This document shows, piece after piece, positions 7,126 to 64,000 of a DNA stretch of 64,000 nucleotides (position 1 is its first letter; each line of letters opens with the position of its first letter). The stretch lies in the NCBI GenBank assembly GCA_951406725.2, contig OX597823.1, forward strand, positions 23,374,001 to 23,438,000, given 5' to 3'. The position numbers and the translations under genes were made by a program. The notes under the pieces are model-generated. The model was not told the DNA's origin. It was given only the letters and a program-made list of their open reading frames with translations, and did not search any database. This DNA comes from Octopus vulgaris (taxonomy: Eukaryota).

Positions 7126-7462
7126 ATGTCTATATAAACACACACACATGCACATGACACACACACACACACACATTTCAATTTTGTATTTGGTTTGCAA
7201 GATGCTTGATGTGAATCCATGTTGAAACACATTTTGTTGCATCTCAGGAGAGTCATTATGTTAGAAACAAACTCACTGATTCCCTCTACACTCTGTGAAG
7301 ACAGTGTTTAGAAACATCTAACTAAAAAAATCCTTCCAAATAAAATACACAAGTGAGAAATGGTGCCCCATCCACGGTTTAAAGGAGTGTAAATCTAAAT
7401 AGGAGATGACTCAGGTCGCATGAATGTATCCAATTTGCACTGTCATCATAAAATGATGATAA

Positions 7463-8940: not shown

Positions 8941-9114
8941 CTTATAAGAATATTGATTGTGGAAGTCCCAAAAAAACTGACGGAACATCTCTGTCCTACT
9001 CTATCACCAACTACAGATCTAAAGTGACCTATACTTGTAATGATGGAAGAAGATCTTTTAAGTCAGTATGTGGAAAATACAATAAATGGTTACCAGCATT
9101 TACTAGTTGTAAAG
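8941..9114 (+). CDS. Exon: Sushi/CCP domain copy 1
   Basis: tttcag|CT...AAAG|gtaatg, 174 nt; [57 protein letters not shown] (4 Cys + Trp CCP pattern). Not captured in this frame by the ORF track. Confidence 0.88.
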
Positions 9115-23800: not shown

Positions 23801-26800
23801 TCAGAGAGTGTAGACCTCTGCCAAGCAGCTCATTTCCACCCATATACACACATGCTAAAAATCACCCAATTTCCCAAACCAACGCCAGCAAAAACATAAC
23901 CTCATTGGCAAGGTTTAAAAAAAATAACACAGCCATATGAATTTTAAAAAAACCCCTTAAAAACAGGAATCATCTGAAGCAGTTATAATACATCAATGAC
24001 AACAGCAAGCTAGTTTCACCATACAACTAAAAAGAAACAACAATTACCTAAAACTTGAGTGATACACACACAACGCAAGTAAAATTACTAATAGAGAAAC
24101 GAAAATAAACTTTGGAAACAGCAACGCCACCATAGGTTACGTTGAAACAATGAACGTGTTTTCAAGGGAGATAATCAAAGAACGTAACAATACTTCATGT
24201 AAAGTAAATATAACAAATGAAAAATCTTTCAAGAATCCATAAAAATTCCTGGATCACTACCAAATTTTCATCATCTGTTCCTTGTGTCATTACCAACTTT
24301 TTCTGCAAGTTTCATCAAATATTGTTCACAATGTTTTGAGTTATTTTGCACACAGACGGAAAACCAATACTGATGAAAACATGACCTTCCTTGGTGGAAT
24401 TAAAAATGTCCCCTTTCCCTTTCCTTACAGACTTCCTCATAATTTGAAGTAAGGATGTGTTCTTGAAGATGTACAGCAATCTTGGATAATTTTTTATTAC
24501 ATTTGTAATGAGTTTATGACTAAAATACATAAAAAAACATTACAAAATTTGTCAAAAATGTTACTATGCTTACATTGGTGTGAAATTAGGAGACCAAGAT
24601 AAGAAGTGGGTTCCTCATAAGGCTTGCTCAATTTGTGTTGAAGAACAAAGACGATGGACAAAAATATACAGGGAAGTCATTTCCTTTTGGGGTTCTAATG
24701 ATATGGAAAGAGCCTAAAAATCAGTGAAGAGTGTTACTTTTTGCTCATGTAAGGTGTAGGAATACAATTTGAAGGGTGAGAAAAACATTGTTTATCCAAA
24801 TCTTCCATCTGTACTGTGACCTGTTGCTTATTGACCAGATGCTTGAGTCTTATCACTACCAGGAAATCTTGAAGACATACGCTTGAGTTATGAGTCAGAA
24901 GATAGAAATAGTAATGATGATGAAAGCTTCAATTGCAGTGAAGGTAAAGAGTCTCAACTATTCAACCAATGTGAGTTAGATAATCTAATCAGGGACTTGG
25001 GGCTCACAAGCTTTTAGGTTCCAGACTTAGATCCAAGAATCTTTTAGCTCCTCACACATAATTCTATTGGTATTATAATTGCGAAAGGGAATTTGTTCCT
25101 TATTTTTCACAAGAAGATGATTTGGTTTATTGTACTGAGCCATCAGGGCTAATAAGAAAATTTGGGATAAATTACAGTCCTGATGAATGAAGACTCTTTA
25201 TTGACTTTTCGAAGAGAAGTATTAAAGCTGTTCTACTACATATGCTTTCATACCTGTTCAACACTCAGTGATCATGAAGGAAGCATATGAAAATTTGGTG
25301 TCACTATTACCCAACAATAAATTTAATGATTACAACTGGATAATTTGTGGTAACTTGAAAATAATTTGCTTGGACAAAAGTTAGGCTACACAAAGCTCCT
25401 TTGTTTCTTGTGTAAATTGGACAGTAGAAGTAGGAACCTCCATAAGTCTAAAAAAGAATGACCAGCTTGTATATGCTTAGACTAGGAACAAAGAATATCT
25501 TTTGAGAAAATTTGGCTGACCTGAAAAGGGTTCTTTTACCGCCTCTACATGTAAAACTTGGCCTCATGATATAATTCATAAAAGATTTGCTACAGGATGG
25601 AGAGGGCTTTGGGTAGTTGCATAGCAAATTTCCTGTGTTGTCAGATACCAAAGTTGAAGAGGGTGTATTTGTAGGACCAGATATAAGGAAACTTGCCAAG
25701 GATGAAAATTTTTTAAATTCTCTTAGTGATTCTGAAAAGATGCATGAATTAGTTTTAAAGATGTGAAGAAGAACTTCTTGCATAATTACAAGGATCAAAA
25801 CTAAAGAGATACTGTGGGAAGAATGCTGGAAAATTTTTAGGTCTTAGGATGTAAAAGGAACATCAAAATTCATTTCCTATATGCCCATTTTGGATTTCTT
25901 TTGAGAAAATCAGGGGGATCTGAGCAAAGAACAGGGGGAAAAGTTTCATCAAGACATAATGGAAATGGATAGAAGATATCAGGGAATATGGAATGTCAAT
26001 ATGATGGCCGACTACTACTGGATGTTGCATTGTGAATGTCTGTCAAATAATCACAAGTGAAAGAGTTTCAGACATAGTTTCCAAATGAAAAAGAAATGAA
26101 AAGAAGGAGTTAACCTTCTAAAGATGATGACTTCTTTTTATTGCTCACTAAAATTATAATGTTGATGAATAAAATTTCTTAGCTTGTTACATTAAATTGT
26201 TGACATCTACTCCAAATTTAAATGAATTCACTAGATGATGATAAAAGTGAAATTAATTTAGTTCACCAAGGTAAAACATTGCAAAATCAGTAAAGCAATG
26301 GGTTATAAGGCCTTGCCACGACAAAACATATTTAGTTACTTTCTTTTACATTCTGGGTGTGCTTAGCTTTTTATTCTTATGAGGTTGATAAACTCTAATC
26401 AAGTCTGAGATGGATTTATTCTTTAGTATTCTTACCGCAGAATGTCTGTAGTTGTATTTAAGCTATCAAAAATTATTATTAATTTTGTTAACGTCAACAG
26501 CAATTATCAACTTTGTTAATGGATTGACCATTTGACATTAGACAAAATGTATTGTGGTATTTGTTCTGGCTCTTTACCTTCTGGTTTCAAATCCTGCTGA
26601 GGTTAACTTTGTCTTTCTTTCTTTGGCTGTCAATGTAAATATATCAATCAAGGGTAGAAACCAATTTAATTGACAAACTCCAACTCAAAGTTTTGGCCTT
26701 CCATGTTAGAAATTATTATTGTGGTGGTTATCATTTTTCATTGGCCTAAATTTTACTTTAATCCTAGATATTGACATCTATTTTGTGAAGATAAAGCAGG

Positions 26801-29800
26801 CAATTCTGGATGTATCAGGGAAATCAATGTGGTCTCCTAGAAGGAAAGGAGCAGAAAGCTGTGCAGAAAAATGTTTGAATAATGACGAATGTTCATCATT
26901 TGAAGACTCAGAGGAGATGGGATATTGTTACCGATCAAAGGAAAGTGCAGCTACCTCCACGAAAATAGTGGAATTTGATGACAGAGATTACTATCAAAAA
27001 ATAGATCGTAATTATTCTTTGTATTTTATTATTAAACTCTTTTTTTTTTCTGAAATTTGTGATTACGTTTGTATTTCATTTTATGTAGACCTACACTTCT
27101 GTAAAGACATTGTTAAGTTTACCTATAAGGACAGACATAGTTACTGGAATATGACATGGTCCTTGGACCCTATAAGATCCTATCAAATTGTCCAAGCCAT
27201 GTAAGCTTGAAACATAGACATTCAAAAATGATGATGGTGATGATGATATCAGGGCAATCTTATACAGCATTTGTTCACCCTAAATACTTTTTTTGCATCT
27301 TTTCAAATGTTTTTTGATGTAAGAAAGGCAAGTTTTGTTGTCTTTGTTAAACCTGAATAGTAGCAATAATAGAAGAAACAATAACTTTATGTTCATTTTC
27401 CCATGTTAGCATTGTTTAAACTGTACTGTTACAAAACTGTCTCAAACCTAGTTGCTAGCCTTCAAAATCTAATATATATTATACATACATACATACATAC
27501 ATACATACATACATACATGTATCCAATAAATCTAATTGGTGATGATTATTTGTATAAAACATAAGGAGAAGAGGTAAAAAATGGAAAAAAATTATCTTAT
27601 ACCACCTCTCTTTCTTTATATTTTATACACTCCTAATGAAATAATGTCTAACAAGTGGATTTATTGGATGGATACATACATACATACATACAAAACAAAC
27701 AAACAAAATATAAAGAAAGAAAGGAGATATAAGATGAAAATAATTATTTCACCAATTGACATCCATACAACTACGATCGTTAAAAAAAAAAAGTGAAATG
27801 ATCGTAGTTGTATGGATGTCAATTGGTGATATAAATTTTAAAAATCTTATACACTCCCAATGAAATAATCATTACGAATAGGATTTATTGGATTTCAACT
27901 GCATTGGACTACAGATTACATCCCTTTATTTTGTTTTGGTTTACTATGTGGTTTGTAGCCTGATCCATTAAGAAGTTTTTTTTATGAGTATCACTAGATT
28001 AGTTAAATCCATATATTTTATAGTTTAAAAGTTTAATTTCTCTATCCTTAGAAAAAAATTTGTCTAACCTTAGAAAATTTTTTTTAATGATCATAATAAT
28101 CAAATAGTATTATCTGATACGACCCTCCCATTTATCACTGTATCCAAGATGTAGGAGGGAGCAACAGACTGTGACATCCCATATATTGTCCATTAAATTT
28201 ATGTGTATATATATATATATATATATATACTAGCAGTATTGCCTGGCGTTGCTCGGGTTTGTTTCGACCCTTTAGAATTGGAATTTTTGAAAAGTAAAAC
28301 TGTTGTATTATGTAGCTCTTTAAGTGAACATTTTTCTGGTTGAAATACACCGAAAAATGGCGACACAGCAGTAAAAAATCGTAAAAAATAGGGATTTTCA
28401 TAGAAAAAAAGCACCTTTTTGATGTAAATAATTTTTGGTGTTAACATGGTCCAATTTGAATTTTTTCTTCTACGGAAGGAAGAGCAAGCCTTCTTCTATT
28501 ATACTTTCAATTTTGGTCAGCTTGTGCTGCAGGGTCTCGGAGGAGATAGTGTTAGTTGAAGGCTACCAAACCTGCCATACACAGACAACTACAGCTTTAT
28601 ATATATATATATATATAAAGGGAAAGTTTGCGAAAATAAACAAAAGACGAAGGCAGGTGGTGTACAAACAAACAAATGTATTAGTATAGCGCTCAGGAAT
28701 AGAAAAAGTCTTTTACGTTTCGAGCCTATGCTCTTCGACAGAAAGATACACAGAAAAAAACAAGGAGAGAAAAAATTGTGTGTAATAGCTAACGATCTGT
28801 CATGGCATCTGACATCAGATGGAATGGTCAGCCGCGAGAGGGACAGTAGGGGAGATAACAGGGTCAAGTGACTCCCAATACGAAGGAGCCCCCAACACAA
28901 AGGTGGGTGTGTGTATAAGAGATTATGTATGTGTGTGTGAAAGAGGGCTGGTGGTCTGGACGTGTGTGTGTATGTATGTGTGGGTTTAATATTATGATAT
29001 ATATATATACACACACACATACATATAATAGTTGGTTTTACAGCATAATTAGTTCGCTAACCCTTTTGTTACCAACCCAACCAAAACCGGCTCTGGCTCT
29101 GTAGTACAAATGTCTCGTTTTTATAAATTTTTCATTAAAATATACCACCAAACCTTAGTCGCAATTTATGTTCCTAACACTAGCTTAATGATAATTAAAT
29201 TATTTTACTAAATTCTTTGTTATATTTAAAATAATTGAAAGAAACACAGAGCATCTCAAAATAAATATAGTAATAAAAGGGTTAAAATGTCTGACATGTG
29301 TCTCTGTTGCAAAGAGTATGTGCAGTTGTATATGCAACCCAGCATATTCTGCTGTGCACCTTCATTAAGGGTCTTTCTACAAGCATGGTTTGAAGCAATC
29401 TGAGTTAATTAATTTTTTTTGTGGCTAGTTTATTTCCTTATTCTGCCCTGTTTAAAATAGAAAAGGTAGTGATGGGGGATATACTGAAATCTGATTTGTC
29501 TATCCAGTTTATTTCTTAGCTGCCCGCAAATCAACTCTAGTTCCAGGGTGAAATTAGGAGTTTTATATATATTAAATTAGGTCAAAGTATATCAGAGTAT
29601 TCTGTAGTGGATCTTGCAGTGGTGTGGATTCAATCCTAGATAGCCAAATTTAAATTAACAGTTCAACAGAACTTTTCTCATGGTAAAACAATAATTTTTC
29701 TGTGACAGTAGTTACATTTGCCACATGCCTTAGCTAAGCAAAATAATGTCTTCGCCACTTGACCCTTCTAACCTCTTCTATTTCACCAATAGCTAGAACA

Positions 29801-32219: not shown

Positions 32220-35200
32220 AGGGGGGATGGGGAGGAGTTCATAGCCATACGCCTGTGCTTCTGATCTGGCGACAAGTGAGTTGTGGACCGGAGCGTTGTC
32301 CTGCAGGAGGAGGATGCCTTTGCTGATCTTGCCCCACCTCTTGATTTTGATAACTTCTCTTAATTTCCTCAAAAGTGAAGCATAATAGGCTCCTGCAATT
32401 GTGGTACCCTTTGCCAGGAAATCTGTCATCACTACTCCGTCCTGGTCCCAGAAGACTGTGAGCATGACCTTGCCAGCGGAGGGCTGCACCCTTGCCTTCT
32501 TTGGAGGGGGTGAGTCACGGTGCTTCCACTGCATTGACTGGGCTTTGGTCTCTGGATCATCGTGATGGACCCAGGTTTCATCCTGTGTAATCAGTCTTTT
32601 GAAAAATTTGACTCATCTTCTTGGCACATCTCCAAATTCACCCTCAAGCACTCGACGCGTTCTTGCTTCTGGAAAGGCGTGAGCAACCTGGGAATCCATC
32701 TGGCAGACACCTTTTGCATATGCAAATGGTCATGAATGATAGTTTCCACAGACCCGGTACTAATCTTGACCTCATGGGCTATTTGGCGAATAATTATGCG
32801 TCGATCTTCGAAAATGGCAGCCTCAACTTGACGGACAGATGCCTCATCAATGGCAGAAGGGGGCGACCAGATCTGGGAGCTGTTTCCACAGAGTTCCGAC
32901 CATGTTTGAATTCACTATGTCAGCGTTTTACAAGGTCATATGATGGGGCATCATCACCATAAGTTACTTTCATTTCATCAAAAGTCTCCCGTGGTGTGCG
33001 TCCTTTCAAATACAAAAACCGGATCACTGCTCGACACTCAACAGGCTCCATTTCACACTTGACTCGGTTCAAACACCTGTAAATCAGAAACCACAATTAA
33101 TTCAGAGCTGTAATTTGTCACTTACTCTATAAAGATATAAATGATTGCACATGCAAAATTTCAGCTAGATCAAACAACTGCAAGTGGATCAGAGGCATTA
33201 CTTATTGAACGTCCCTCGTATTCTTAAGAGATTTTCTCTCTCATTTCTTGTTCATTATCCTATTATCATGCAACACTCCTAGGTATTTGTATCCCTCATT
33301 ATTCCACAGCAATCTAATGATGCTGTGACAATTTTATGCTGTCTGATTTGGCATGGTTTCTACAGCTGGATACCCTTATCAACCACTCCAGAAGTGTATT
33401 GGGTACTTTCACATACCACCGGCATGGGCGCCATTTACATGACACCGGCAACAATCACGACTATGATTCTTGGGTAATTTTTACATGGCACTGGCAACGA
33501 CCATGACTATGATGCACAAGTGCCATTAAAATGGCAATGACCACGATGATTCACAGGTGCTCTTTACATGGTACTGGCAACAACCATGACTACTATTCGT
33601 AGGTGCCATTTCCATGGCATGGTCATTGACCCCAACTCCAATTCATGGGTGCCATTTACAAGGCACCAGAGATGGCCTGACTCCAATTCCATGGGTACAA
33701 TTTACATGGCACTGGCAATGGCCACAATTACGATTTCACTTGGCCTGACAAGTTTTCTCATGCACAGCATATTGCCAGAGGTCTCTTTTCCTTTGCTTCA
33801 TCCCTTGCTTAGGAATTTTATCTTTTTTGCTCATTCCATCAATCTCTCCTTTGAATTCTTCTCATAACGTGCCAAATTATTATTATTATCATTATTATTA
33901 TTATCATTATTATTATTATTATTATTATTATTACGAATATTTTTTAAATATTAAAAATAATTATCAAGCAGTGCCATTTAATTGAAATTATAAATAAAAT
34001 GTTTGAAAGCCATCTGGTTTAATTTTTTTTAATGGACAGTTTTTTTTTATAAAAGCACAGTCCATCCACAACGTTATTTTTTGGCATGAGACACTCTTCT
34101 CAGAATTCTTGTGAACTCTGCTAAGTCATGAGACATACTCAAAACTTCACATAAATGTTTAGGCTGCAGTTAATCCATCAGAAGAGAAATTTATTCTGAT
34201 GGTGTGCTTTGGTTTAAAACTGAATAATGGCACTTGACATGTTGGTTGATCACAAGTATAAGGGACATTTTACCTTACAAAAGCATACCCTCAGAGGAAG
34301 AAGTACAAAAGGATTATTTACAATCTAAATATTGAAATAAAGTTTTGAGTAAGTCTCAAGATGTACTATTACTCACATGAATGCTGATGAGGATATGATT
34401 TTGCTGATCAAATATTTGTTTATAAAAAATTGTCCATTATTCTCCATGTGTGGTATAATACTTAATATATGTTTGTAGAGTTTCTTTTGTGTGTGAGTGT
34501 GTGTGTGTGTATGTGTCTGACTGCCAGTCTTTCTGTTTTTATATGCATGTATGAGTATAATATGTATTTCTTGATTTTTTTCCAGCCTATGGTGAGGTTT
34601 TTGTATTTAAAAGAGTTCATATACCAGGGCAGGATAATTTTGAACAGTTTAAGAACGTGGACTTAAAGAAGTGTCATGAAGAGTGCTTGAAACGTCCGCA
34701 ATGTTTTTCTTATGAGTACCATGAAAGAACGAAGGCCTGTGATCTGAGTAATGCAAATCATTTGAGTCATGATCTTAAGCCCAATGAAAAAGGTTGGGAT
34801 ATTTACATACTTAATCCAGGTCAGTTGCTTGTTTTCATTTTATTAATGATGTGTCCATTGTGTGTATTTATGTTTGTATACATCTGTGTGTGTGTGTATC
34901 AAATATATGCATATCTATGTATCTGTGTGTATATACATATGTGTATGTATATATATAAACACATATGCCAGAATGGACAATGGATGTTAAATGATGATGA
35001 TGACATTTATCTTCTTTAAATATAAAACTGAGAATGTGTGTCTGTCTGTCTGTCTGTCTATCTGTCTGTCTGTCTGTCTATCTGTCTGTCTGTGTGTTTC
35101 CCTAAAACTTGAGAACTGCACAACCAATTTCATTCAAATTTTACACATGCCTTACCTAGGGTCCATGTAGTTTCATGGGCAAAAAAAATGTTCAACTTCT

Positions 35201-43349: not shown

Positions 43350-46300
43350 TTGTCTATGCATGCATATCTAGGTAGAAATTTCTTCAATCTGTTCTACACA
43401 GTATCTTTTATTGTAACATTATCATAATTTCCTTGTTCTCACATTTCTCCTCCTGACATACACACACACCATTCATGTCAATTTCTCTTGTTAATCCCAG
43501 GTTATGCACTAATTGACTGTGGACATCCAAAAGAAGTTTTTGGTGCAGAGATGTTTTACAAAAGTGCCTCCTATAAATCTGAAGTGACCTACACTTGCCC
43601 AGAGGGAGAAACAATAAAGGCAGTATGTGGAAAGGATAACAAATGGACAAGGGTACCACCTGTTTGTAAAGGTAAAGTAAATAAACTTTCTCTTGTTGCT
43701 TCTAAGTAATATAGTTTTATTTTTTTATGAAATGTCTAAGTCAGAGGAAGCATGGTTGACTCCATGACAATTTCTACATAGTATTTTTGACTAGTGGGTG
43801 GAGAAGCAGATCTCTCCATATGTTTGCAATAGAGTGAACTCCAGTAATTCTATCCCGAGGCCAGGTAATGGTATTCTATTGGGTGATGTATTACATCTAA
43901 CAACAAAGAACTAGAAGAATGGAAGCTTGTTCCGTCTGACAGGCTTCCATATAGTTTCTATCTTCCAGATTTCGTCCTTAGTTATAAAGCTAAGATTTCA
44001 TTCAATGCCACATTGTTGTGTAGTGAACTTATTAGACCCAATCTATGCTTGACCCATATCTAGGTAGTTTTCCTCTTTATTTCAGACTTGCTCTGTTTCA
44101 CTCATACTTTTTGCCATCATCCAAATCCTTGTATAACATAATGGGCTGAGTCCTTCATTACTAGATTTTAGCTAACATCTGAAACAGCCTTTCGATGCTG
44201 TAATGGTCTTCTAATCCCAAATATCAATAACAATAATGGTTTCTGATGTAGCCTCACATTTAAATTTTGATGTGACGGGTTAGTAAATACTATTGATCCC
44301 AATACTTGACTAGTACTTTATGTTTTTGACCCCTGCAAGTGTGAAAGATAAAGTTTTTCTTGGTTGGATTTTAACTGAAAAATATAAAGAGCTTCAATAC
44401 ATAGCATGAAGAATTTCTTCCAATTCTTTAATGATTCTTTCACTTGACAACACTTCTGAGATAATAATAATAATGACTTCATTTATTTGTTTCTAGGACA
44501 TCACACTGGATTGATAATACAAAGACAGACCCACATAACTTCTTCAATACAAATTAATTCATAATACATGTATTTGAAAATCTGTAAATAGCCAAAGTAC
44601 TTACACAGTGCGAATGCTTCTTCCCCATCCATTCACCTATATATACATACTTACACACATATACACACACACACACACATGCACACTCACACACACACAC
44701 ACACACATAGATACATACACATATGCCTAATCACTGCTTTGCTTTGGTACTGTTGAATTTCTCCTGACTGAGGGAGGTCCAACAGTGCAACTTAGTCAAT
44801 GTTGTTGACCGTGTTTTAGTTAAAGCTACAACCCTAAATCTGCTCAGGTTTACCTCTCTTCAGTATTTTCCATCGAGGAAGGGTAAAGAGCCAGAAATGC
44901 AGCATCAGAAAATCCAATAGTGGGCAACACTCGGCAGATATGGTGTTTTTACACCTTTTACCATTGAAGAGAATTTTTTCTCCATGGTAACTGCAGTGAA
45001 TTTGCCTTGAGAAGTTGAAATATGTCACAAACATATTTTAACTGACCTAAAGTTTACATATGCCTAATCACTGCTTGGTGCTCTTGCTATTGAATGTGTG
45101 TGTCTGTGTGTGTGTATTGGATTGGAGCAAAAGTGTGTACTGTTTTTTAAGTAAAATGAAAAACCATCTTTTAGTTACTTGTATATACCTTTATTAAATT
45201 ACACAAGTCCTTTTTGTTCCACTATCTTTTGCCAACCTTGAGACAGCTTCATGCTCCCATCCTCTCAGAACTTGGCATGTTTCTGGATCTAAGTAGTTTA
45301 AGAACTGGTCTACATGGTTTTTATAGTCATTCACAGAACTGAAGTTCTTCCCATTAAGAGAATTTTCTAGAGATCAAGATAAACAATAATCCAAGGGTAC
45401 AAGGTCAAGTGAGTATGGTAGGTATGGTAGGACATTCAAATCAAGTAGTACCAATTTCTATCAGGTGAGCAAAGAAACATGAGCATTGTTTTGAAGGAAG
45501 ATGTTACTTTTCCAGCTGGTCAGTTCTGGATGTTTTTCATTGATTTCTTCCTTGAATTAGTCTTATTGGGAACAATAGTTGTCTGAATTCAACAGCTGAT
45601 TTCGCAAAAGGAGTTTGTACTACTCTACTCAATTCTCTTTCAATCTCACCAGATACAAAGCATCACCTATTTTAGATGCTGACTGGCCTTTAGAGTGATT
45701 AATGGTGGTTTATTTCGCTTTCTCATTCTTTAAAAAAAAAAATGAGTCCTTTTTTTTACTGTGCTTGGGCAAGGAATTGCAAATGGAAATGTGGTCCATT
45801 AAATTTTCTTCTGTTAAATTATGAGGCACCCAAACAAAGCAATTCCCATTTTCAAGTGTTTCTAAATACCTTATAATGTTTATATGAAATATGTAAAGTA
45901 TCCCTGCAAAATCTTGTTTTGTGTAACCTGGATTATGGTTGAATAGCCTTTTGATTTGGTCGTCATGAATGACTAAAGGCCTTCTGGAATGTTCAGAGTA
46001 TTTCAAATCAAAATATTATTCATAGGCCTAACAAACCATTCCTGAACAGTTCTCTCAGTGATGACACCACCCTCATAAGCAGCACATATCTTTTTTGTTG
46101 TTTGTGTAATGTCCTTTTTCTCTTTCTGGAAATGAAAGAGCATCAAATGATGAACATGTATCTCATTTTCTTCCATGTTTACTTTTTAATGTAGAAACTG
46201 TAGAAATAAGCTATCCACACAGTAATTGTATAGAAAGATGTATTGAAATTACACCTTTAAGAAAAAATATTTTTGTCATATGCTTTACTCACATGAGAAA

Positions 46301-49300
46301 TGAAATCATGTGTTTAAATGCCACTGAAAATCATGTGTTTAAATGCCACTGAAAATCAGAAAATTGTATGAACTTTCATTCAATCTCCAAAGCTTTAAGG
46401 TTGCCTTTCATGACATCCTTAAACCACTTCCTTGGTTTATGCTGAGGCTTTTTCTTGTTGGCCAGCTCCCATTAGCTTGCCTTCTATCTTCTATCCTGAC
46501 AACTTTAGAAGCTTTATCTAAAGATGAACAAGACCAGTAACAGAGTTAAGCTCATGGACCACCGAGTCGGAATAAAAATATTGACATCAGTACCAAGCAG
46601 TGATGAAAAATAAATGAACTGTAAATTAGTTGATACAGCTATTTTTATTCCAACCAGGTGATCCATGAGTGCTACTAAGTTACTGGTGTTGATTGTTTTT
46701 AGATTAAAGCTATGGATTTGAATCTGCCCAGGGTTATCTCACTTTGGTATTTTTGTATTGAGGAAGGTTAAAATGCCAGGAATAGGCAGCTGGGATTCTG
46801 CTAGAGGGAGACACTGGGTAGGTATGGTGTTTTTACACCTTTTGCCATAAGAAAGAATTTTTTCTATTCAGTAACTGAAGTCAATCTGCCTTTAGAAGTT
46901 AAAATATGTCATAAGCATTTAGATTTTTTACAAACAACTTGCAGATGCAAGTACTATTGGATTTTAGCAAGCTCATGTGGTTATGAGGAGTGAATGTGCA
47001 CTGTTTTAGGGCCTTCCTCTCACCGGCATCATTGCACACCAGCCCTCCTTCCCCCTCACTGAAATGAGGCCCTGCTTGCTAGATTAACTGGTTATATATT
47101 TGAACTAACTTAAAATTCATTTCTTCTTCATTACAGCTTGATACTGATACTTTTAAAATCTAAGTACTGGTGTTGTCTGTCTCTTTTCAATATATATTTC
47201 TTTACTACCCACAAGGGGCTAAACACAGAGGGAACAAACAAGGACAGATAAACGGATTAAGTCGATTATATCGACTCCAGTGCGTAACTGGTACTTAATT
47301 TATCGACCCCGAAAGGATGAAAGGCAAAGTCGACCTTGGCGAAATTTGAACCCAGAATGTAACGCCAGACGAAATACGGCTATGCATTTCTCCCGGCATG
47401 CTAACGTTTCTGTCAGCTCGCCGCCTTTTCAATATAGATTAGTTGTAACAATTTCTTTCCTTTAATTACTAGAATGTTCAAAATAGGAAGTTCTCTTTCA
47501 CTCATGTTCATAGAGAATTGGACCAATGATTGCTATTTATCAATTTAAGGAATCTTATAAGTTCTGTTGCGAAAGATAGAGTAAGCACTCAAGAATCTTT
47601 TCTAGTTTTCTTTTAAATGGAATCAGAAATAATGATCCAAAGCAATCATAGAACAGGCATTAATTTTTTCTTTTTACCTTCAAGGAATCGCATTACCAGT
47701 GTATGTATGAATTTATACCTGTGTGCATGTTGCTTCAATCTGTTTCACTAAATATCTTTTATTGTAGCATTATTATCAATTCTTTTTTCTTAACCACCTC
47801 CAAACATACATGTACAACTGATATCAATTTCTGTTACCAATTTCAGCTTATGAAAAAGTTAACTGTGGACCCCCAATGTATGTTGTTGGGGCACTTCAGT
47901 CTTCCAAAACCAGCACCTATAAATCAAAAGTTTACTATACTTGCCTAAACGAAGACAAGTTGATCTCAGTATGTGAAAAGGACAGCAAATGGGTACCGGT
48001 GGCTGGTTGTAAAGGTAAAGTAAATAAACTTTCTCTTGTTGCTTCTAAGTAATATAGTTTTATTTTTTTATGAAATGTCTAAGTCAGAGGAAGCATGGTT
48101 GACTCCATGACAATTTCTACATAGTATTTTTGACTAGTGGGGGGAGAAGCAGTTATTCTCAGACCTGAGACCTCTCCAAATGTTTGCAATAGAGTGAACT
48201 CCAGTAATTCTATCCCGAGGCCAGGTAATGGTATTCTATTGGGTGATGTATTACATCTAACAACAAAGAACTAGAAGAATGGAAGCTTATTCCTTCTGAC
48301 AGGCTTCCATATAGTTTCTATCTTCCAGATTTCGTCCTTAGTTATAAAGCTAAGATTTCATTCAATGCCACATTGTTGTGTAGTGAACTTATTAGACCCA
48401 ATCTATGCTTGACCCATATCTAGGTAGTTTTCCTCTTTATTTCAGACTTGCTCTGTTTCACTCATACTTTATGTCATCATCCAAATCTCTGTATAACGTA
48501 ATGGGCTGAATCCTTCATTACTAGATTTTGGCTAACATCTGAAACAGCCTTTCAATGCATGCACTGAAGTCCCCATTCACTCTTGCCCTTTTTGACATGT
48601 ACACCCAGCTGTCAATAATTTCACTTTGGGACAGTACTGCCATCTCCATCTTCACCGTCTTCACAAGTGAAGTCTAAAGATGCTGAACCAAAGAGGAAAG
48701 TATCTATCACCATATCTTTCAACCTGATCCATGACACAAATTCTTTTGAAAACAGAAGAAAGCTGCATTCTCTTTCCTATTAAAGCAGGGTGTAGGACAA
48801 TCATCATGATGAACTTGGTTGACAACAAGATCCCTCCCTACACAGCAGCGTCTCTTTGACATAACTCTACAGGGTGTCTCAAAATTAAGGCAACCAAGGC
48901 TTTAATAATTATCAATAAATATGATAAGATATGAAAGTTATACATCATTATAAAAGCTTAGTGTGTCTTCTTTTGTTTCAGACTAAATAAATTCAGATTT
49001 ATAAATTAGATAATGGCTATAGACCGAAATACAATCATAATCCTTCACAAAAGAGGTGAAAGTAATAGAGCTATAGCAAAACAGCTTAAAATTAACTGAA
49101 CAACAGTCTGAAAAATTGTCAAGAAATTTCAAGAGACTGTCCAAGCACTGTTCATCCTAGATGTGGCTGAAAAGGAAGTGTGCAGATCCCTCTGCTTATT
49201 AAAATACCAGAGAAAAAATACAGCAAAATCCTTGTCTTGCAACACAAAACTGGCTGCCACAGCAAAAATAAGCCAAACATCGATGTATCAAGTGCTGAAG

Positions 49301-51937: not shown

Positions 51938-54900
51938 TGTTGTTGTTGTTGTTGTTAATCTTCATTAGTCTAAATCTTATTTTAAATGTAGGTGCTCTGG
52001 TCAATTTCGTGAGAGTAAAAAATGGAGCTCTGAATGTAAAAAATAAAAAATTGTGGCATAATAAAAATGGAACAGCAGAAGACTGTGCAAAGAAATGTTG
52101 GTCTGACAAAAGTTGTTTGTCATTTGAAGTGATTAGAAAATCTACAAAATGTTACCTATTAAAAGAAAGTGCACTTTCCACGAGGAGAATGACAACAGAC
52201 ATAAACAGAGATTACTATCAACGAGTAGAACGTAATTATTCTTTATGTTATATAATTGGACTCGCCTTCTTTTTCTGAAATTTGTGATTATATTTATGTA
52301 TCTTAGTAGACAGACAAACACTCTTGTAAAAATATTGACAGGTTTACCTATAAGGACAGATATAGACATGTTCCAGAAAAAGAGGAAGCGATGCTTAGGG
52401 AATTCTCAAACAGCATTTGTTGATTTTGAACAATTTATGTATATTTTCAATTGCACTTTTTCTATGTAAGAATGGCAACACTTGTTTTTGTTAAACCTGA
52501 CTAGAAACAGTAGTAGTAATAACAACATTTGTCTTTTCTGGCATGACTTAGGGCTATTAGAGCACAGTGTCTCACCCACTAGATACAGTTCTTCCTAATT
52601 TGATACACAAAATAACTAAAAAAAAAAAAATATCGTTATATGGAGTCATGTATCACTGATATTTTGGCATGGTTATTAGGGATGGATGCCCTTCCAGCCA
52701 ATATACCACTTAAAGAGAGTACATTTTTCAATGCTACTGGAGTGAGAGAAATTTTCTATTGGGGTTAAAGAATCTTCTCAACATAAAATAAGTTCTCATT
52801 CAGAATAGTTCCATGGTATTTAAGAATAGAACAGTCAACAACTGTATTTATTTTGATCTCAAGAACTTTGTCTTTTATTATCAAAATCCTTCTTTCTTGA
52901 AATCTTGAACTTCAGAGGAAATTCACTAGGTTTAATGAACTCAATATCAAAAAAATCCTGAAAGCTAGGATGTCATTGCTATTGTGATGAATTTTTGGGG
53001 GCCACTTTTGAAGACCTCACTGTAATATTTAACCTGAGCACTTTCAATAACTTCATGCACATTCACAGCTCAGATTTATACAGAGACAAAAGCTTAGCAA
53101 TTTGAAAGAAATGAAGCTAGCTTGATCCACTGGATGTGTAATGTCATAGTGTAAGCGCCCTGAGAGAAATGTTGGAAGCATCAGATGTGGCTTACAAGAG
53201 AGATGACTGTGCTGGTATGGTCATGTACTACAGATAAATGAGGAGAGCTATGTGAAGAAGTGCCACTCCCAAACAGTAGAAGGAACCTGTGGTAGAGGGA
53301 GACCCAGGTAAACATGGGATGAGGTGGTAAAGCATGACCTTCAAAGGTTGGGCCCCACAGAGGCAATGACAAAAGACTGAGACCTCTGGAGATATGCTGT
53401 GTCTGAGAAGACCTGGTAGGTAAAGTGAGATCACAGTTGTAGCCTACACCAGTGTTACATAACCAGCCTATTTAAAAAGTGCCTTTGGATTGTCAGTCGA
53501 CATGCCGTGCTTGAGGAGACCTATTGTATCAAGTACATCAAAATTAAAATCAAAATCAAAATCAAATCAAACTACAATCAAATGGAAATTGTAGTTGTAG
53601 CTGATACTAGTGCCGCCTGACTGGCTTCCCATGCCAGTGGCACATAAAATTACCATTCGAACAGGGTCAATGCCAGCCCCCTTGCACTGAAATTACTAAA
53701 AGCATCTACAATTTATCCTCAAATAGAGATATTTTTGGCAGTATACTTACAATATGTTTGCTAGGATTGGCTCTACTATAAAAAAAAGAATATCCTCCAT
53801 CTCTAAAACTGAAGAAAATTAGAAAAATAAGAAAAGTTTGGTCCAACCCTCTCTTCAATTTAAATGTCTACAACCAGAAAAGTTTTATCCTGTGTTAGAT
53901 TCCATTTCTTGGTCACATGGAAGTATCACAAGCTTATTAATATGCCTAGTGTCAAGGTTTGCTACTCCTGTCTGCTACAATAGGATTACTTTATTCAGTC
54001 TTTTTATCAGACATCCATCTTCAATTACCAAAATCAACCCATCTCTCCACTGAGAAACTTTCTAAGATAGAGGTTTATAGGGCAACTCTCACTCCTCTTG
54101 ATGATTTCCCAATGAATTACATGGGACTCACAGTCAATGACTTCATTGAAAGTTTCACTCAGCATATACACTCATTTTTATGTGAAAACTTCAGGAACAG
54201 GGAAATGATCTGCCCAGCATAATCTTGAGCTTATGCAACACACCACACACACAAACACACACACACACTCTCTCTCACGCACACACACATACACACACAC
54301 ACACGTATACATAATGTAAACAATATCACACATCAATATAAATTAAGATACAAATATAAAAATATATATTTATTTTTTTCTTACATTATTGTTCTAAATT
54401 TCATTCAGTTTGATATTGTAAACAAATTTATTAAGTTTTTTTAGTTTTTCCACAAGTATTTATCCTCATATTTGAGAAATATTTGCTATTAGGAATGCTG
54501 TGAAAAGCAATTGCAGCTAATGAAGTGGTGTATATGTTAAGTCATTGTATGGGGGATAAATCAACAGGAGTAAATCTGCCCTAAGAGTTATATTACCACA
54601 AGCCAGATGTGTTCATTCCTCTCTTTGTAGCCATTTACTCCAGTTGGCAGCAGACTAGGAACATTCCTGGGGAGTGCTGATACAGCTGAGGAGAATCTAA
54701 AAAATGGGAACTGACAGAAGTTTTCAGACCCAGAAATCTGCCCAACATTGAATTAAAGACTTTAGTAAAGGTGCTTGCCAAGGGGCTGGCACATGTTGAT
54801 AGTATAGATGGAGGTAAGCAACTCTGCGTGATCCTTGGCAGATCTATCCATGACAACCTCCACCTCATGTGATAAATCATACACCAGGTCCAAATGAATC

Positions 54901-57055: not shown

Positions 57056-57576
57056 TATATGTATGTGTGTGTGTGTGTATATGTGTGAAAGCATGAGTGT
57101 GTGTGCACATGCATGTGTGTGGATGTGTATGAGTATAAAATGTATTTCTTTCCTTTTTGTTTTTCCAGCTGATGCTAACATGATTGCATTAAAAGCAGTA
57201 GGCATACCAGGACAGGATAATATTGGACGGCATGATAGTGTGGACGTAAAGGCATGCAATAAAGCTTGCCTTGAATATACAGGATGTACTTCTTATGAGT
57301 ACAATGATAAATCTCAATACTGTGATTTAAGTAATGTGACTCATGCAACTCATGAACTTAAACCCAACACTGCAGGTTGGGATATTTACATCTTAAATCC
57401 AGGTTAGTAGAATATTTTCTCATTTTATCCTTTGCATGTCTGTTTGTATTTACATACCTGAATATGTATATAATACATATGAATATAATATATATGTATA
57501 TATACATATATGTATGTATATGTGTATATATGTGTGTATGTGTATGTATGTATGAATATATATATATATATGTATA

Positions 57577-61112: not shown

Positions 61113-63760
61113 TGTGTATGTGTGTGTGAGTGTGTGTGTGTGTGTGTGTATGGCCATTCCTCATTGGAAAGGAGTCCAGTCGATTAGATTGACTCCAGTA
61201 TGCAACTGGTACTTAATTTATCGACCCCAAAAAGATGAAAGGTAAAGTCGACCTCAGTGGAATTTGAACTCAGAATGTAAAGACAGATGAAATACCACTA
61301 AGCATTTCACTTGGCGTGTGAGCGTTTTTGCCAGCTCGCCACCTTTAAATATATTGAGTATATTATGAAAAACCTGTCCTGTTTTGTTTTCCACACTATG
61401 TTTGTTTGTGTGAATGTATTTTTGTGTTTTCTTCAATATGAAGTAGGGCAGCATAAAATTTTAGAGAATATTATGTAGCGTGATTTTGATTGCAGGAAAT
61501 ATCTATATGAGAAAGAGTAGTTGGTATCTTTCATTTAAATAACAAAGAATTTTGTTCATTGAACTATTGAGGATATGAAGATGTGGGAAACATTTGTGTA
61601 TGAAAAATTGACTCTGATATGCTTAAAATATCTAGCAGAGTAGACTAGAATCTAGTTCCTCAATTATTTAACTAAATAATATGGGAATGTTATATGCAAG
61701 GACTAGAAATGCAGTGTCATTATAAAGGGTAATAAAGGCAATGGAAATACATAGAATAAGGAGACTACAAGAGCATCAAATTTTCAAACATAGCCAACTG
61801 CTACAAAGGTAAAGGTGATGCTTTAGACTGGTATAGCAGCACCATAGTCAACTGCTACAAAGGTAAAGGTGACGCTTTAGGTACAAATAATTACAGAGGT
61901 ATCAAGTTGTTGGATCAGGTAATGAAGGTCACGGCAAGATCATAGCCCAACTATTTAGGGAGAGAGTCAGTTTAGACGAGATGCAGTTTGGGTTCATGCC
62001 AGGGAATTGCACCACTAATGCTATATTTCTGGTAAGACAGCTGCAGGAGAAATACCTAACCAAAAATAAACCTCTGTACCTGGCTTTCATTCACATGAAG
62101 AAAGCCTTTGACAGGGTCCCCCCGATCCCTTATCTAGTGGTCAATGAGGAACCTAGGGTTAAGGCAACCTGTGGAAGCTATCCTCATCCATTCTCACCAC
62201 ATCACCACAGCTATCTCTCTTTCACACCACATCTGATACTTCTATGGTCCAACTTTTCTCTCAAGGTACTTAAACTCTGTCGAGTATGCACACTGACATT
62301 ACACATCCAGCGGAGCATACTGGCTTCATTCCTTGCAAGCTTACGCATGTCCTCAGCAGTCACGGTCCATGTTTCACTGCCATATGGTGGTTTAGGGAAC
62401 CTGTGGATGAGGTGGTGAAGCACGACTTTCAAACATTAGGCCTCAGTGAGGCAATGACTATTGACCGAAATATGCTGTGCTTGAGAAGACCAGGCAAGCT
62501 AAGTGAGACCATAACCTGTGGTCTATTCCAGGGGTTTAACCAGCCCTCTTATCTGTACCTTTCCTTCATTAGACACTAAACTTTGCTTGCAAAGACCTGT
62601 TGAGGTAAGTGAAATCGAAATCGAAATCAAATTTGATGACTGGCATCTGTGCTAGTGGAGCACTAAAAGCATCATCCTAGCATGATCGTTGCCAGAGCAG
62701 CTGACTGGCTTCCGTGCCAGTGGCACATAAAAAGCACCATTCAAGCATGATTGTTACCAGCGTCGCCTTACTGGCACTTGTGCCAGTGACATGTGAAAAA
62801 ATATTTGAGCAAGGTCATTGCCAGTGCCGCTGGACTGGCTCCTGTGCAGGTGGCATGTAAAAAACACCATTTGAGCATGGCCGCTGCCAGTACCGCCTGA
62901 CTTGCCCTCGTGCTGGTGGCACGTAAAAGCACCCACTACACTCTCGGAGTGGTTGGCGTTAAGGAAGGGCATCCAGCTGTAGAAACTCTGCCAGATCAGA
63001 TTGGGGCCTGGCGCTGCCATATGGTTCGCCAGTCTTCAGTCAAATCGTCCAACCCATGCCAGCATGGAAAGCGGACATTAAACGATGATGATGATGATGT
63101 TTGAAGTGTATCAAAGACTAGAGAGAGGATTTGCAATCATTCTCTGATGATTATGTAATGTTAGTGTGCATGAATAGAAGAGTAAAAACGAGCAAAGGAA
63201 AAGCTATATATAATAGAATCTAATATGATGTGAAGAAAAAAAAAAACTTCTATGGTTCAGGCATATGATGCATATAGAGAATGATTGCTATATAAGAAAT
63301 TGTCAAGTGATCAAACTGAACAAAATTTGCAGAAAAGGGAGACTGAGGAAGACTCAAGACAAAACAGAGAAGACAAAAGATGATGATAATTGGTGTTATG
63401 TAGAGCTGCAGTAACCTGATGAAATGTACATTAGAAACGGCTGTGTTGAACAATGTGTGTGGGTGTATTTATATCTCTGTGCAACTTGCTTCACTCAATA
63501 AATTTCATTGTAAACCTGTTATGTTCTCATTCTCATCCTCCTCCTAACATACTTTCACCATTAGTGTCAATTTCTGTCATCAATTCCAGCTTATGTGCAA
63601 GTTAAATGTGGACCTCCAAAAGATGTTGCTCTTGGCAAAAAGGCCTACACTACCACCAGATACAAATCTGAGGTGACTTATACTTGTGATGATGGAAATC
63701 AATATAAGTTGACATGTGAAAAGGACAATAAATGGAGTCCCATAACATTTTCTTGCAAAG
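8941..63760 (+). CDS. Partial multi-exon gene (11 exons in window, open at both ends) encoding a repetitive Sushi/CCP + PAN/apple extracellular protein
   Basis: Exons 8941-9114, 13114-13353, 17652-17885, 22104-22274, 26768-27007, 34586-34819, 43501-43671, 47847-48014, 51992-52231, 57169-57402, 63590-63760. All are AG/GT-bounded, phase 1-1 and stop-free, and they join in one frame (759 codons). Confidence 0.88.
9734..10100 (-). mobile_element. RTE LINE 3' end (5'-truncated copy)
   Basis: Very similar to 3460-3800, with a (cat)n tail. Confidence 0.9.
11570..11785 (+). mobile_element. Older RTE 3' end fragment
   Basis: cacactctgtaaagtggttggt...catggaaaatggatgttaaatgatgatg; a similar copy lies at 14370-14588. 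Confidence 0.65.
12109..12648 (-). mobile_element. RTE LINE 3' end with expanded ~60-bp tandem units
   Basis: Matches the 3' UTR of 3460-4070; repeated unit ggtgctttttacgtgccaccggcacgggggccaggcgaggctggcaacggccacga. Confidence 0.9.
12761..12965 (+). mobile_element. tRNA-head SINE
   Basis: tggcagaatgg (A-box-like), gagtttaaattcc (B-box-like), aaggtcgactttacctttcatcc...aagtaccagttg; reverse-strand copies at 47195-47428 and 61178-61345. Confidence 0.75.
13114..13353 (+). CDS. Exon: PAN/apple domain type A copy 1
   Basis: ttctag|AT...AAAC|gtaatt, 240 nt; [25 protein letters not shown] (C-x3-C-x5-C-x11-C PAN core) ...DRDYYQ. Confidence 0.88.
16278..16945. repeat. Interspersed repeat embedded in (TTA)n arrays, with its left part re-duplicated
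   Basis: catgccatcaaagtgacact...cccatcatgacta at ~16297 and ~16882; SINE tail fragments duplicated at 16150-16220 and 16945-17015. Confidence 0.55.
17652..17885 (+). CDS. Exon: PAN/apple domain type B copy 1
   Basis: ttccag|CC...CCAG|gtcagt, 234 nt; [30 protein letters not shown]...GWDIYIFNP. Confidence 0.88.
17945..18235. repeat. Foldback (inverted pair) of RTE 3' ends
   Basis: 18063-18113 is the near-perfect reverse complement of 18130-18182; outer (cat)n/(atg)n and gtgtgtattt/aaatacacac are also mirrored. Confidence 0.85.
18293..18960 (-). mobile_element. Decayed, internally deleted mariner transposon
   Basis: HQDNTQPHT...[16 protein letters not shown]; terminal tattgggtcatcccataaataa. 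Confidence 0.8.
18975..20140 (-). mobile_element. R4/Dong-like non-LTR retrotransposon, 5'/RT fragment
   Basis: [13 protein letters not shown] and [16 protein letters not shown]; abuts the (TTA)n array at 20148. Confidence 0.65.
20265..20716 (-). mobile_element. R4/Dong-like 3' end with restriction-like endonuclease
   Basis: [59 protein letters not shown]; flanked on both sides by (TAA)n. Confidence 0.85.
20845..21315 (-). mobile_element. Second, older R4/Dong-like RLE 3' end
   Basis: [35 protein letters not shown] and [17 protein letters not shown]; ends in (TAA)n. Confidence 0.75.
21325..21500. repeat. Compound tetranucleotide microsatellite (ATGT/ACGT/ACGG/ATGG)n
   Basis: Read directly from the sequence. 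Confidence 0.95.
22104..22274 (+). CDS. Exon: Sushi/CCP domain copy 2
   Basis: tttcag|CT...AAAG|gtaaca, 171 nt; [56 protein letters not shown]. Confidence 0.88.
24520..26100 (+). mobile_element. Decayed DNA transposase, probably CMC/Chapaev3-like
   Basis: Remnants [71 protein letters not shown]...[17 protein letters not shown]; many stops. The family label is from my recall of these motifs. Confidence 0.6.
26768..27007 (+). CDS. Exon: PAN/apple domain type A copy 2
   Basis: tcctag|AT...GATC|gtaatt, 240 nt; [25 protein letters not shown]...DRDYYQ. Confidence 0.88.
27749..27829. repeat. Perfect 30-bp inverted repeat with 21-nt loop
   Basis: tcaccaattgacatccatacaactacgatc (27749-27778) / gatcgtagttgtatggatgtcaattggtga (27800-27829). 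Confidence 0.95.
28229..28615 (-). mobile_element. Non-autonomous Helitron-like element in (TA)n
   Basis: Minus strand ends ...cccgagcaacgccaggcaatactgCTAGt; a similar 3' end is on + at 2118-2146. Confidence 0.6.
28618..28800 (-). mobile_element. Penelope-like terminal fragment with minimal hammerhead variant
   Basis: Minus strand: tcttt CTGTCGA a gagc atag gctc GAAAC GTA aaaga (28709-28746). Confidence 0.6.
29058..29285. mobile_element. piggyBac-like MITE
   Basis: taaCCCttttgttac...gtaataaaaGGGttaa terminal inverted repeats; TTAA on the right, ctaa on the left. Confidence 0.55.
29620..30164. repeat. ~197-bp inverted repeat with ~150-bp spacer
   Basis: 29620-29816 is the reverse complement of 29968-30164, with scattered mismatches. 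Confidence 0.9.
30290..30936 (+). mobile_element. Decayed RTE 3' portion
   Basis: ccaagaagacatgggatgaagtggtgaaacatgatc ([13 protein letters not shown]-like), 3' UTR and (gat)n tail. Confidence 0.75.
31480..31985 (-). mobile_element. Decayed Penelope-like fragment; paralogous piece at ~55500-55985
   Basis: 31715-31840 resembles 55840-55980; minus strand shows YGQT / YTGET-like GIY-YIG remnants. Confidence 0.45.
32221..33220 (-). mobile_element. Mariner transposon, fairly young, 3'-truncated at an (ATC)n tract
   Basis: TIR tacgagggacgttcaataagtaatg; [29 protein letters not shown]. Confidence 0.9.
33340..33785 (-). mobile_element. Old RTE-type 3' UTR with degenerate ~45-bp tandem units
   Basis: tttctacagctggata.. 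followed by repeated catggcactggcaac..gactatgat units. Confidence 0.6.
34586..34819 (+). CDS. Exon: PAN/apple domain type B copy 2
   Basis: ttccag|CC...CCAG|gtcagt, 234 nt; [30 protein letters not shown]...GWDIYILNP. Confidence 0.88.
35010..39545 (+). mobile_element. Helitron complex with decayed PIF1-like helicase (36440-38490)
   Basis: 5' TC plus (gtct)n tract; [61 protein letters not shown]; hairpin+CTAG at ~36075-36105 and terminal CTAG at 39542-39545. Confidence 0.8.
39005..39440 (+). mobile_element. tRNA-head SINE nested in the Helitron, with ~108-bp internal tandem duplication
   Basis: tggcttagtgg A box, gagttcaattcc B box, ccttgagcaagacact; unit gtgtctgtggagtgctc... at 39223 and 39332. 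Confidence 0.75.
39557..40030 (+). mobile_element. Full-length tRNA-head SINE with internal (TA/TG)n
   Basis: tggctgtgtgg A box, gagttcagtcc B box, ccttgggcaagtgtctt, A-rich tail aagtaaaagaataaaagag. Confidence 0.8.
40340..40915 (+). mobile_element. Penelope-like element RT fragment
   Basis: [44 protein letters not shown]; stops present. Confidence 0.85.
41375..41955 (+). mobile_element. Decayed RTE 3' portion
   Basis: Homologous to the RTE C-terminus and 3' UTR; similar copies at 53085-53690 and 58190-58965. Confidence 0.7.
42290..43310 (-). mobile_element. Decayed R4/Dong-like RT C-terminal region
   Basis: [11 protein letters not shown] and [30 protein letters not shown] on the minus strand. 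Confidence 0.6.
43501..43671 (+). CDS. Exon: Sushi/CCP domain copy 3
   Basis: tcccag|GT...AAAG|gtaaag, 171 nt; [56 protein letters not shown]. Confidence 0.88.
45115..46390 (-). mobile_element. Decayed mariner transposon
   Basis: [31 protein letters not shown] (YSPDL-like); tattggattggagcaaaagt terminus. Confidence 0.75.
46511..46710. repeat. Imperfect inverted repeat (MITE-like)
   Basis: gctttatctaaa..accagtaac..ctcatgga..ggaataaaaata mirrored by tatttttattcc..tccatgag..gttactggt..tttagattaaagc. Confidence 0.6.
47847..48014 (+). CDS. Exon: Sushi/CCP domain copy 4
   Basis: tttcag|CT...AAAG|gtaaag, 168 nt; [55 protein letters not shown]. Not captured in this frame by the ORF track. Confidence 0.85.
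48868..50147 (+). mobile_element. Full-length decayed Tc1/mariner element, probably maT (DD37D) type
   Basis: TA TSDs; TIR cagggtgtctcaaaattaaggcaacc / ggttgccttaattttgggacaccctg; [36 protein letters not shown]. Confidence 0.85.
51992..52231 (+). CDS. Exon: PAN/apple domain type A copy 3
   Basis: atgtag|GT...GAAC|gtaatt, 240 nt; [25 protein letters not shown]...NRDYYQ. Confidence 0.88.
55998..56190. repeat. (TTA)n microsatellite
   Basis: Read directly; similar arrays at 16219-16264, 20148-20262, 20716-20842, 33877-33933. Confidence 0.95.
57169..57402 (+). CDS. Exon: PAN/apple domain type B copy 3
   Basis: ttccag|CT...CCAG|gttagt, 234 nt; [30 protein letters not shown]...GWDIYILNP. Confidence 0.88.
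57712..57905 (-). mobile_element. Penelope-like terminal fragment with degenerate hammerhead core
   Basis: Minus strand: gttc CTGAAGA a gagc att gccc GAAAC ctt aaac (57798-57835). Confidence 0.45.
59285..61020 (+). mobile_element. Old decayed RTE LINE (RT region to 3' tail)
   Basis: [21 protein letters not shown]; colinear with the reverse complement of 4071-5900. Confidence 0.85.
61790..63099 (+). mobile_element. Rearranged RTE copy with internal deletion and inversion
   Basis: + strand RT piece 61790-62158 ([15 protein letters not shown]); - strand piece 62177-62384 ([27 protein letters not shown]); + strand 3' end 62388-63099 with (atg)n tail. Confidence 0.85.
63590..63760 (+). CDS. Exon: Sushi/CCP domain copy 5
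   Basis: ttccag|CT...AAAG|gtaacg, 171 nt; [56 protein letters not shown]. Confidence 0.88.
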
Positions 63761-64000
63761 GTAACGTAAACAGCTTTTCTCTATTTGCCTCTGTCTATGT
63801 GACTTTTTTAAAAAAGTTTAAATTATGTGTTTTTGTCAGAAGAAAGTTGACTCTTCATATATACATCTTCTTTGCCCATTTAATGCCAGAATGGGAGAGG
63901 GGAAAGAATCCTCAAGCATACCTTTCATGAGATCCTGTCAGAAGCAACTGTCTTCTGTTAGACCCCAAGACTAGCCAAGCACATGCATGTTATCCAAGCA

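Follow-up and report, generated by a model that had tools for sequence, protein, structure and literature searches.

We analyzed a window of 64,000 nucleotides (nt) from Octopus vulgaris (NCBI GenBank assembly GCA_951406725.2; contig OX597823.1, positions 23,374,001 to 23,438,000 of the forward strand), in which two adjacent exons encoding Sushi domains, S11 and S12, are followed by nearly identical stretches of intron. The window is the 5' part of a single locus of 1.64 Mb (G000:C10:23362495-25003053). Exon calling on 1.864 Mb including the window resulted in 349 exons for this locus (i.e., 133 Sushi, 105 PAN-A, and 105 PAN-B [PAN/Apple] exons, 2 short start exons, and 4 GON exons); neither the window nor the 1.864 Mb around it contains any N. 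The modules follow the order (A-B-S[-S])n, and all 343 module exons are in phase 1-1, have AG/GT ends, and encode 4 or 5 cysteines each (4 in 131 of the 133 Sushi exons and 5 in the other 2). Joined together, the exons give a frame of 24,352 amino acids without a stop (2.75 MDa; isoelectric point, 8.9; 13.9% lysine; 272 N-glycosylation sequons). The initial annotation had pictured a Sushi array; the locus is not Sushi-only, and it probably represents a single giant gene for a predicted secreted (PAN-PAN-Sushi[-Sushi])n-GON protein. The features at the center of this analysis are as follows (positions are those of the window).

43501..43671, + strand: Sushi exon S11 (phase 1-1; 56 codons; Pfam Sushi match)
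43664..44198, + strand: putatively converted tract, copy A (535 nt, i.e., the final 8 nt of the exon plus 527 nt of intron)
47847..48014, + strand: Sushi exon S12 (phase 1-1; 55 codons; Pfam Sushi match)
48007..48558, + strand: putatively converted tract, copy B (552 nt)

Both exons have AG/GT ends and open frames. Their proteins share 24 of 55 aligned residues (43.6%), close to the approximately 42% given in the initial annotation, and their nucleotide identity is 66.7% (55 differences in 165). The two copies of the tract, carried by repeats 4.3 kb apart, are 97.5% identical, with 13 substitutions and a single 17-nt indel (48151-48167), as was previously estimated by eye (about a dozen substitutions and one indel of this size). 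Identity between the copies begins 8 nt before the exon end, and the contrast between exon (55/165 differences) and tract (13/535) is strong (Fisher P = 3e-26). The upstream intron flanks are indeed much less alike than the downstream block, being 75 to 76% identical, with an array median of ~72%. The tract is thus two-ended: identity is 97.5% inside versus 67 to 76% on the 5' side, and there is no homology beyond the 3' end. Copy A lacks the 17-nt piece, which other Sushi introns retain. Past the 3' end of copy B, the intron matches mostly positions +900 to +1100 of other Sushi introns, and ~400 to 500 nt of ancestral intron are missing there (a deletion that may have preceded or followed the tract), whereas copy A continues into the ancestral intron. 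The substitutions are unevenly distributed along the tract, with 5 in the first 447 nt and 8 in the last 88 nt (P = 2.5e-4, for a split chosen post hoc).

To place the two repeats among their relatives, we ranked the partner of each among the 133 Sushi repeats. For the downstream intron, S11 and S12 are each other's closest relatives (rank 1 for both; 98.3%, with a median of 74%). For the upstream intron, the partner ranks 28th (S11) and 30th (S12), and for the exon, it ranks 115th (S11) and 74th (S12). The proportions of differing nonsynonymous (pN) and synonymous (pS) sites are 0.33 and 0.35, respectively (34.5 synonymous sites, uncorrected; pN/pS, ~0.95). Given these ranks, the pS and pN values, and the divergence of the upstream intron, the S11 and S12 exons are old, while a single bounded stretch of intron is young. 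Searching the genome with the block returned at least 39 matches, and full-length matches at ≥94% were limited to the two copies. Of these matches, 34 were located on the + strand within the array (contig C10; 32 besides the copies, 64 to 81% identical; all counts are lower bounds), and the remaining five were short pieces (35 to 140 nt) on other contigs. The block corresponds to the sequence with which the introns of Sushi repeats normally begin.

Exchange is not confined to this pair. Among 147 modules with a paralogue at ≥80%, 62 have it at a distance of 13 exons and 26 at a distance of 26 exons; the 13-exon offset is a higher-order repeat. This repeat occupies the middle of the array, and the remaining modules show offsets of 8, 12, 18, and 20 exons. 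A second tract of the same kind as that of S11/S12 begins near the end of the window.

63722..64000, + strand: start of the tract shared by S15 and S16, which extends past the window end (S16 side, G000:C10:23443066-23443730)

Here, 627 nt of downstream intron are 96.2% identical, and the exons are 59% identical in protein; the S15 tract stops where a repeat has inserted into the S15 intron. Far downstream, S280 and S285 share an intron tract of 705 nt scored at 97.0%, with exons that are 62.5% identical in amino acids, versus 86% for an S285-like module in a database protein. A scan for such tracts gave 120 raw segments, of which 32 were removed (length of <200 nt, repeat share of >0.3, or >4% differences), leaving 88 tracts of ≥200 nt at ≥96% among 74 pairs. 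Seventeen of these pairs are old (background of <85%) and comprise 8 whole-exon, 7 intron-only, and 2 part-exon tracts; in the 8 old pairs with near-identical whole exons, there are 0 to 3 synonymous differences. Exons make up 19.6% of tract columns versus 14.8% of aligned columns, a share that purifying selection inflates. That the array is still recombining, as initially proposed, is supported by this analysis. The accompanying proposal, that coding variants are kept distinct, finds no support as a general rule: exons are over-represented in tracts, and homogenization reaches whole exons no less often than introns; this says nothing of the single pair S11/S12. We also observed one case of exon-only homogenization, in which a 241-nt tract at 97.9% fits the exon almost to the base between flanks of 83 to 88%.

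G000:C10:23706803-23707042: exon-only tract in A70, shared with module A109 near 23932090

Read support was assessed with short-read contigs from 4 of the 24 listed runs, after the best-matching run was excluded as a possible source of the assembly. Contigs of run X4 (organism B) bridge the 3' junctions of both copies (copy A, 44164-44634; copy B, 48524-48936) and reach 35 nt into the tract in each case. Both X2 and X4 also have a contig whose first position is exactly 43664, and its depth exceeds that of neighboring unique contigs (26.9 versus 11 to 18 in X2; 75.3 versus 42 to 54 in X4). A depth of ~1.5 to 2 times that of the neighbors is as expected if two copies collapse; short-read contigs pop bubbles, and contig depth is a weak measure that does not give copy number. 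Three alleles in X2 are absent from both reference copies. In addition, one contig from organism E, covering 48075-48440, has 13 differences in 366 nt to copy B, a region in which the two copies differ by 5 substitutions and the indel, and its depth (28.9) is above that of the other listed contigs of that organism (10 to 21). This contig gives a weak hint that the conversion may be younger than the split from organism E and may have occurred there independently as well.

We consider with reasonable confidence that the tract most likely arose by ectopic gene conversion between two old, non-sister Sushi repeats, probably in more than one round, and we are highly confident in gene conversion when the variant that adds selection on the exons is included. 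The clustering of differences at the 3' end of the tract suggests at least two rounds. Of the mechanisms put forward in the initial annotation, conversion with an end at the 3' end of the exon stood (it is the 5' end of the tract that lies there), while a single unequal crossover misfits because the tract has two ends. Under gene conversion, a germline break in one intron would be repaired with the homologous intron of the neighboring repeat as the template, and copying would be limited to sequence still able to pair. It would begin where the 33%-diverged exon ends and halt where copy B lost 400 to 500 nt. The homogenized stretch would then be a better substrate for the following round, with an older, more diverged layer left at the 3' end. 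The same patchwork exchange would act across the array on top of the 13-exon higher-order duplications, taking exons as readily as introns, so that the sharp exon edge at S11/S12 would need no special selection.

Several observations weigh against this interpretation or against the single large gene in which we place it. Conversion between introns of ~74% background identity should be rare, and few of the adjacent Sushi-Sushi pairs (2 of 31) show the pattern. Many of the 88 tracts fall within young 13-exon duplicates, where the identity may simply persist from the duplication. Of 160 internal tract ends, 21 are no more than 25 nt away from an exon edge, versus 11.4 expected (nominal P = 0.005, with tracts that are not independent); the 3' exon edges alone hold 9 ends versus 5.7 expected (P = 0.12), and the excess could be explained by selection. 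The 5' junction of copy A is bridged by no listed short-read contig, and the contig over that of copy B (X2 record 12) extends just 30 nt into the tract, below the 31-nt threshold. No S11 or S12 orthologue was retrieved, which is weak evidence (for S12, longer proteins were compared, with three candidates, none of them scored). Finally, no spliced RNA was seen in X23, the only RNA-like run compared, which yielded one 156-nt piece across the A13 acceptor with intron included and no splice joint; a short interspersed element (SINE) at 47.2 to 47.4 kb swamped its tables, and the run is uninformative on expression.

The near-identity could also stem from a misassembly, collapsed haplotypes, or a young transposon, and the reads examined were all short. 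The copies differ at 14 places, however, contigs of X4 span the 3' junction of each, only two near-identical copies exist, and their homologues are located after other Sushi exons; we therefore regard both possibilities, which were raised at the outset, as very improbable. Similarly remote is the alternative offered in the initial annotation, namely, that a recent duplication was followed by accelerated evolution of the exons while the introns stayed conserved, as in snake-venom and conotoxin genes. In PMC2474615, viper three-finger toxin genes are described with near-identical introns beside divergent exon segments (ASSET), and the octopus block resembles them in that introns are more alike than exons across it; the pN/pS of S11/S12 is also near 1 and above that of most adjacent Sushi pairs. 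The octopus case differs in that the upstream intron is at background (75%) and the synonymous sites have diverged like the replacement sites: synonymous divergence is 35% and is indistinguishable from that of the upstream intron (P = 0.39). The likeness is limited to one flank and 535 nt, and the exons are not recent sisters (ranks 115 and 74, as above). Compared with Octopus bimaculoides models, identity is 85.6% for Sushi exons from other parts of the array (n = 21), the same as for GON (85.5%). We rejected accelerated evolution on these grounds.

Constraint is a further way to obtain near-identical introns, if the downstream intron were a functional splicing or RNA-pairing element (e.g., a Dscam-like docking or editing-complementary sequence). 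Sequence downstream of Sushi exons can be aligned across the array over several hundred nt (with 51% of partners at +201 to +300), unlike the upstream sequence (3% at −201 to −300), one 200-nt window folds at z = −2.5 (crude shuffle), and skipping of the phase 1-1 module exons preserves the frame. Other copies of the intron are merely ~64 to 80% identical, however, and none of the 343 modules has a 14-nt antisense match to the tract in the scanned exon regions (other introns were not scanned). In 25 random modules, pairing with the module's own intron was not stronger than pairing with introns from elsewhere (mean rank, 0.55). Upstream introns of PAN-A exons are equally alignable and downstream introns of PAN-B exons are not, which fits duplication history. 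We consider such an element quite unlikely. The three exon types alternate along the locus rather than being clustered as in Dscam-like mutually exclusive arrays. Less easily dismissed, though still unlikely, is selection of the kind seen in opsins, in which conversion at S11/S12 would be frequent and tracts entering the exon would be removed to keep two different Sushi surfaces. PMC3213168 and PMC3924837 describe intron-limited conversion beside divergent exons in the primate L/M opsin genes (OPN1LW/OPN1MW), which, like S11/S12, are tandem paralogues with near-identical introns, clearly different exons, and conversion tracts in introns. The start of identity 8 nt before the exon end, the layering of substitutions (pointing to repeated rounds), a pN of 0.33 that is the second highest among the 31 adjacent Sushi pairs, the enrichment of tract ends near exon edges, and the hint of independent homogenization in organism E all agree with it. 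In the opsins, both flanking introns are homogenized, whereas the octopus upstream flank (75.5%) is near the median of 72% and only the downstream intron is affected. The octopus units are also exons of one gene, with 33% exon divergence and pN close to pS, and whole exons are homogenized elsewhere in the array, as the exon share of tracts and the eight old pairs indicate. Moreover, heterology by itself stops tracts; selection at this pair is possible, but heterology is enough as an explanation.

The S11/S12 tract is a clean example of a known process, and we regard the locus as mattering more. Pfam Sushi (PF00084) matched 5 of 5 Sushi exons in the window, and the 134 matches to a Sushi query were confined to the C10 + strand between 23.28 and 24.97 Mb. 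The giant locus and a small paralogue adjacent to it on the upstream side (G000:C10:about 23269850-23294700) each have a single set of start exons and a single GON end. The paralogue has the same start exons as the giant, followed by one exon each of the PAN-A, PAN-B, and Sushi types and by GON exons; its 3' region is homologous as well, and it is likely the ancestral-size gene. An automatic scan of the giant locus for a signal exon found nothing, and its start exon came from alignment with the small paralogue; the N terminus is hydrophobic and signal-like, as judged by hydropathy and conservation in the paralogue. No membrane-length stretch was found in the joined frame (no 19-residue window of >1.6). 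A cuttlefish protein (CAE1175485.1; 359 amino acids) reads as PAN-Sushi-Sushi-GON, with domains assigned by eye in a model that may be partial. Both it and the small paralogue share the domain order and GON end of the giant, and the paralogue shares the start exons as well; they have one repeat unit versus ~105 in the giant.

Relatives in the databases are PAN/Apple- and Sushi-domain proteins of Octopus, one with a GON end, and the database fragments of the locus are as follows.

O. vulgaris fragments: CAI9728790.1 ("SVEP1-like"), CAI9728792.1, and CAI9728796.1 ("ADAMTS20-like")
O. bimaculoides fragments: LOC106869390, LOC106869402, and LOC128248837-40
O. sinensis fragments: LOC118764741 and LOC118764742

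Exon order is colinear across the three species. The three O. vulgaris models are 857 to 4,470 amino acids long, and a stretch of O. vulgaris protein is identical to the genome. Modules 48 to 59, 108 to 125, 130 to 140, and 335 to 345 are matched in order by the O. bimaculoides models, with class means of 83 to 86% (51 modules; GON, 85.5%), and the O. sinensis models map mostly at 90 to 100%. The fragments have the same exons in the same order as the giant locus, and none of the retrieved ones spans more than 4,470 amino acids. SVEP1 is characterized by vWA, EGF, and pentraxin domains, and ADAMTS20 by a metalloprotease domain. Identity with either was rejected: strong Pfam hits on five database fragments were only to PAN, Sushi, and GON. 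No vWA, EGF, pentraxin, or protease exons are present in the joined frame, other exon kinds not having been searched for directly. The names SVEP1-like and ADAMTS20-like derive from single shared domains, and the annotation of the fragments that carry them is corrected here.

From this architecture, the product is predicted to be a secreted, basic, and disulfide-rich chain of modules arranged like beads on a string, most likely with a structural or adhesive role outside the cell. All 349 exons are predicted to be spliced together; the symmetric exons would allow skipping too. Drosophila Dumpy (~23,000 amino acids), titin (~34,000 amino acids), and LPA, with its kringle IV-2 array, are giant modular proteins whose genes contain internal arrays of exons that evolve in concert. 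The octopus locus resembles them in its very long frame of symmetric module exons, its higher-order repeats, and exchange between repeats, and its size is near that of Dumpy; it differs in its (PAN-PAN-Sushi[-Sushi])n-GON architecture, its basic character, and the lack of a detected transmembrane stretch. Concerted evolution in repeat genes is reportedly also the subject of PMC9779670 and 10.1101/282418. We found no paper on this gene or domain order in a search that left most subscription journals and supplements outside its scope, and fragments could be in gene lists. Tentatively, the evidence can be combined into a predicted ~2.75-MDa secreted protein that would have grown from a four-domain PAN-PAN-Sushi-GON ancestor by 13-exon duplication and would still be patched by conversion, with the introns of a few Sushi pairs hit repeatedly while their exons stay distinct; we rate this full combination as plausible without favoring it. 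If true, the protein would be among the largest known in animals and held in databases only as fragments. If spliced through, it would be a Dumpy-sized extracellular protein, greatly expanded in Octopus, and a candidate octopus-specific structural material. With 343 intact modules and an order conserved between species, the locus offers a test bed for selection (the opsin model) versus heterology as the cause of sharp conversion edges.

The other module exons called in the window are as follows.

8941..9114, + strand: Sushi exon S5 (exon call)
13114..13353, + strand: PAN/Apple type-A exon A6 (exon call and Pfam)
17652..17885, + strand: PAN/Apple type-B exon B7 (exon call and Pfam)
22104..22274, + strand: Sushi exon S8 (exon call)
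26768..27007, + strand: PAN type-A exon A9 (exon call)
34586..34819, + strand: PAN type-B exon B10 (exon call)
51992..52231, + strand: PAN type-A exon A13 (exon call)
57169..57402, + strand: PAN type-B exon B14 (exon call)
63590..63760, + strand: Sushi exon S15 (exon call)

Elsewhere in the locus, two partial exon remnants lie in introns (a PAN-A piece at G000:C10:24195911-24196042 and a PAN-B piece at 24207898-24207969), and 123 nt of the former match exon A161, which is 1.8 kb downstream, at 98%. Module B140 (G000:C10:24093506-24093706) is short and divergent (201 nt as called) and has an 82% match to an O. bimaculoides model ending there; its exon end may be miscalled or may be an alternative end.

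The window also contains several repeats. A multi-copy element at 48868-50147, with 30-nt inverted ends and high depth in all DNA runs, is presumably a Tc1/mariner-type transposon. Upstream of S12, positions 47195-47430 hold a very high-copy, short SINE-like repeat. On the − strand, 4074-7307 is a stop-free stretch of 1,078 codons within a multi-copy repeat and is probably a long interspersed element. Pieces of the intron after S5 (9381-9733 and 10110-10551) are 96 to 98% identical, at another offset, to sequence in the S16 intron (G000:C10:23445010-23445800), as scored by a cheap-gap BLAST that inflates identities.

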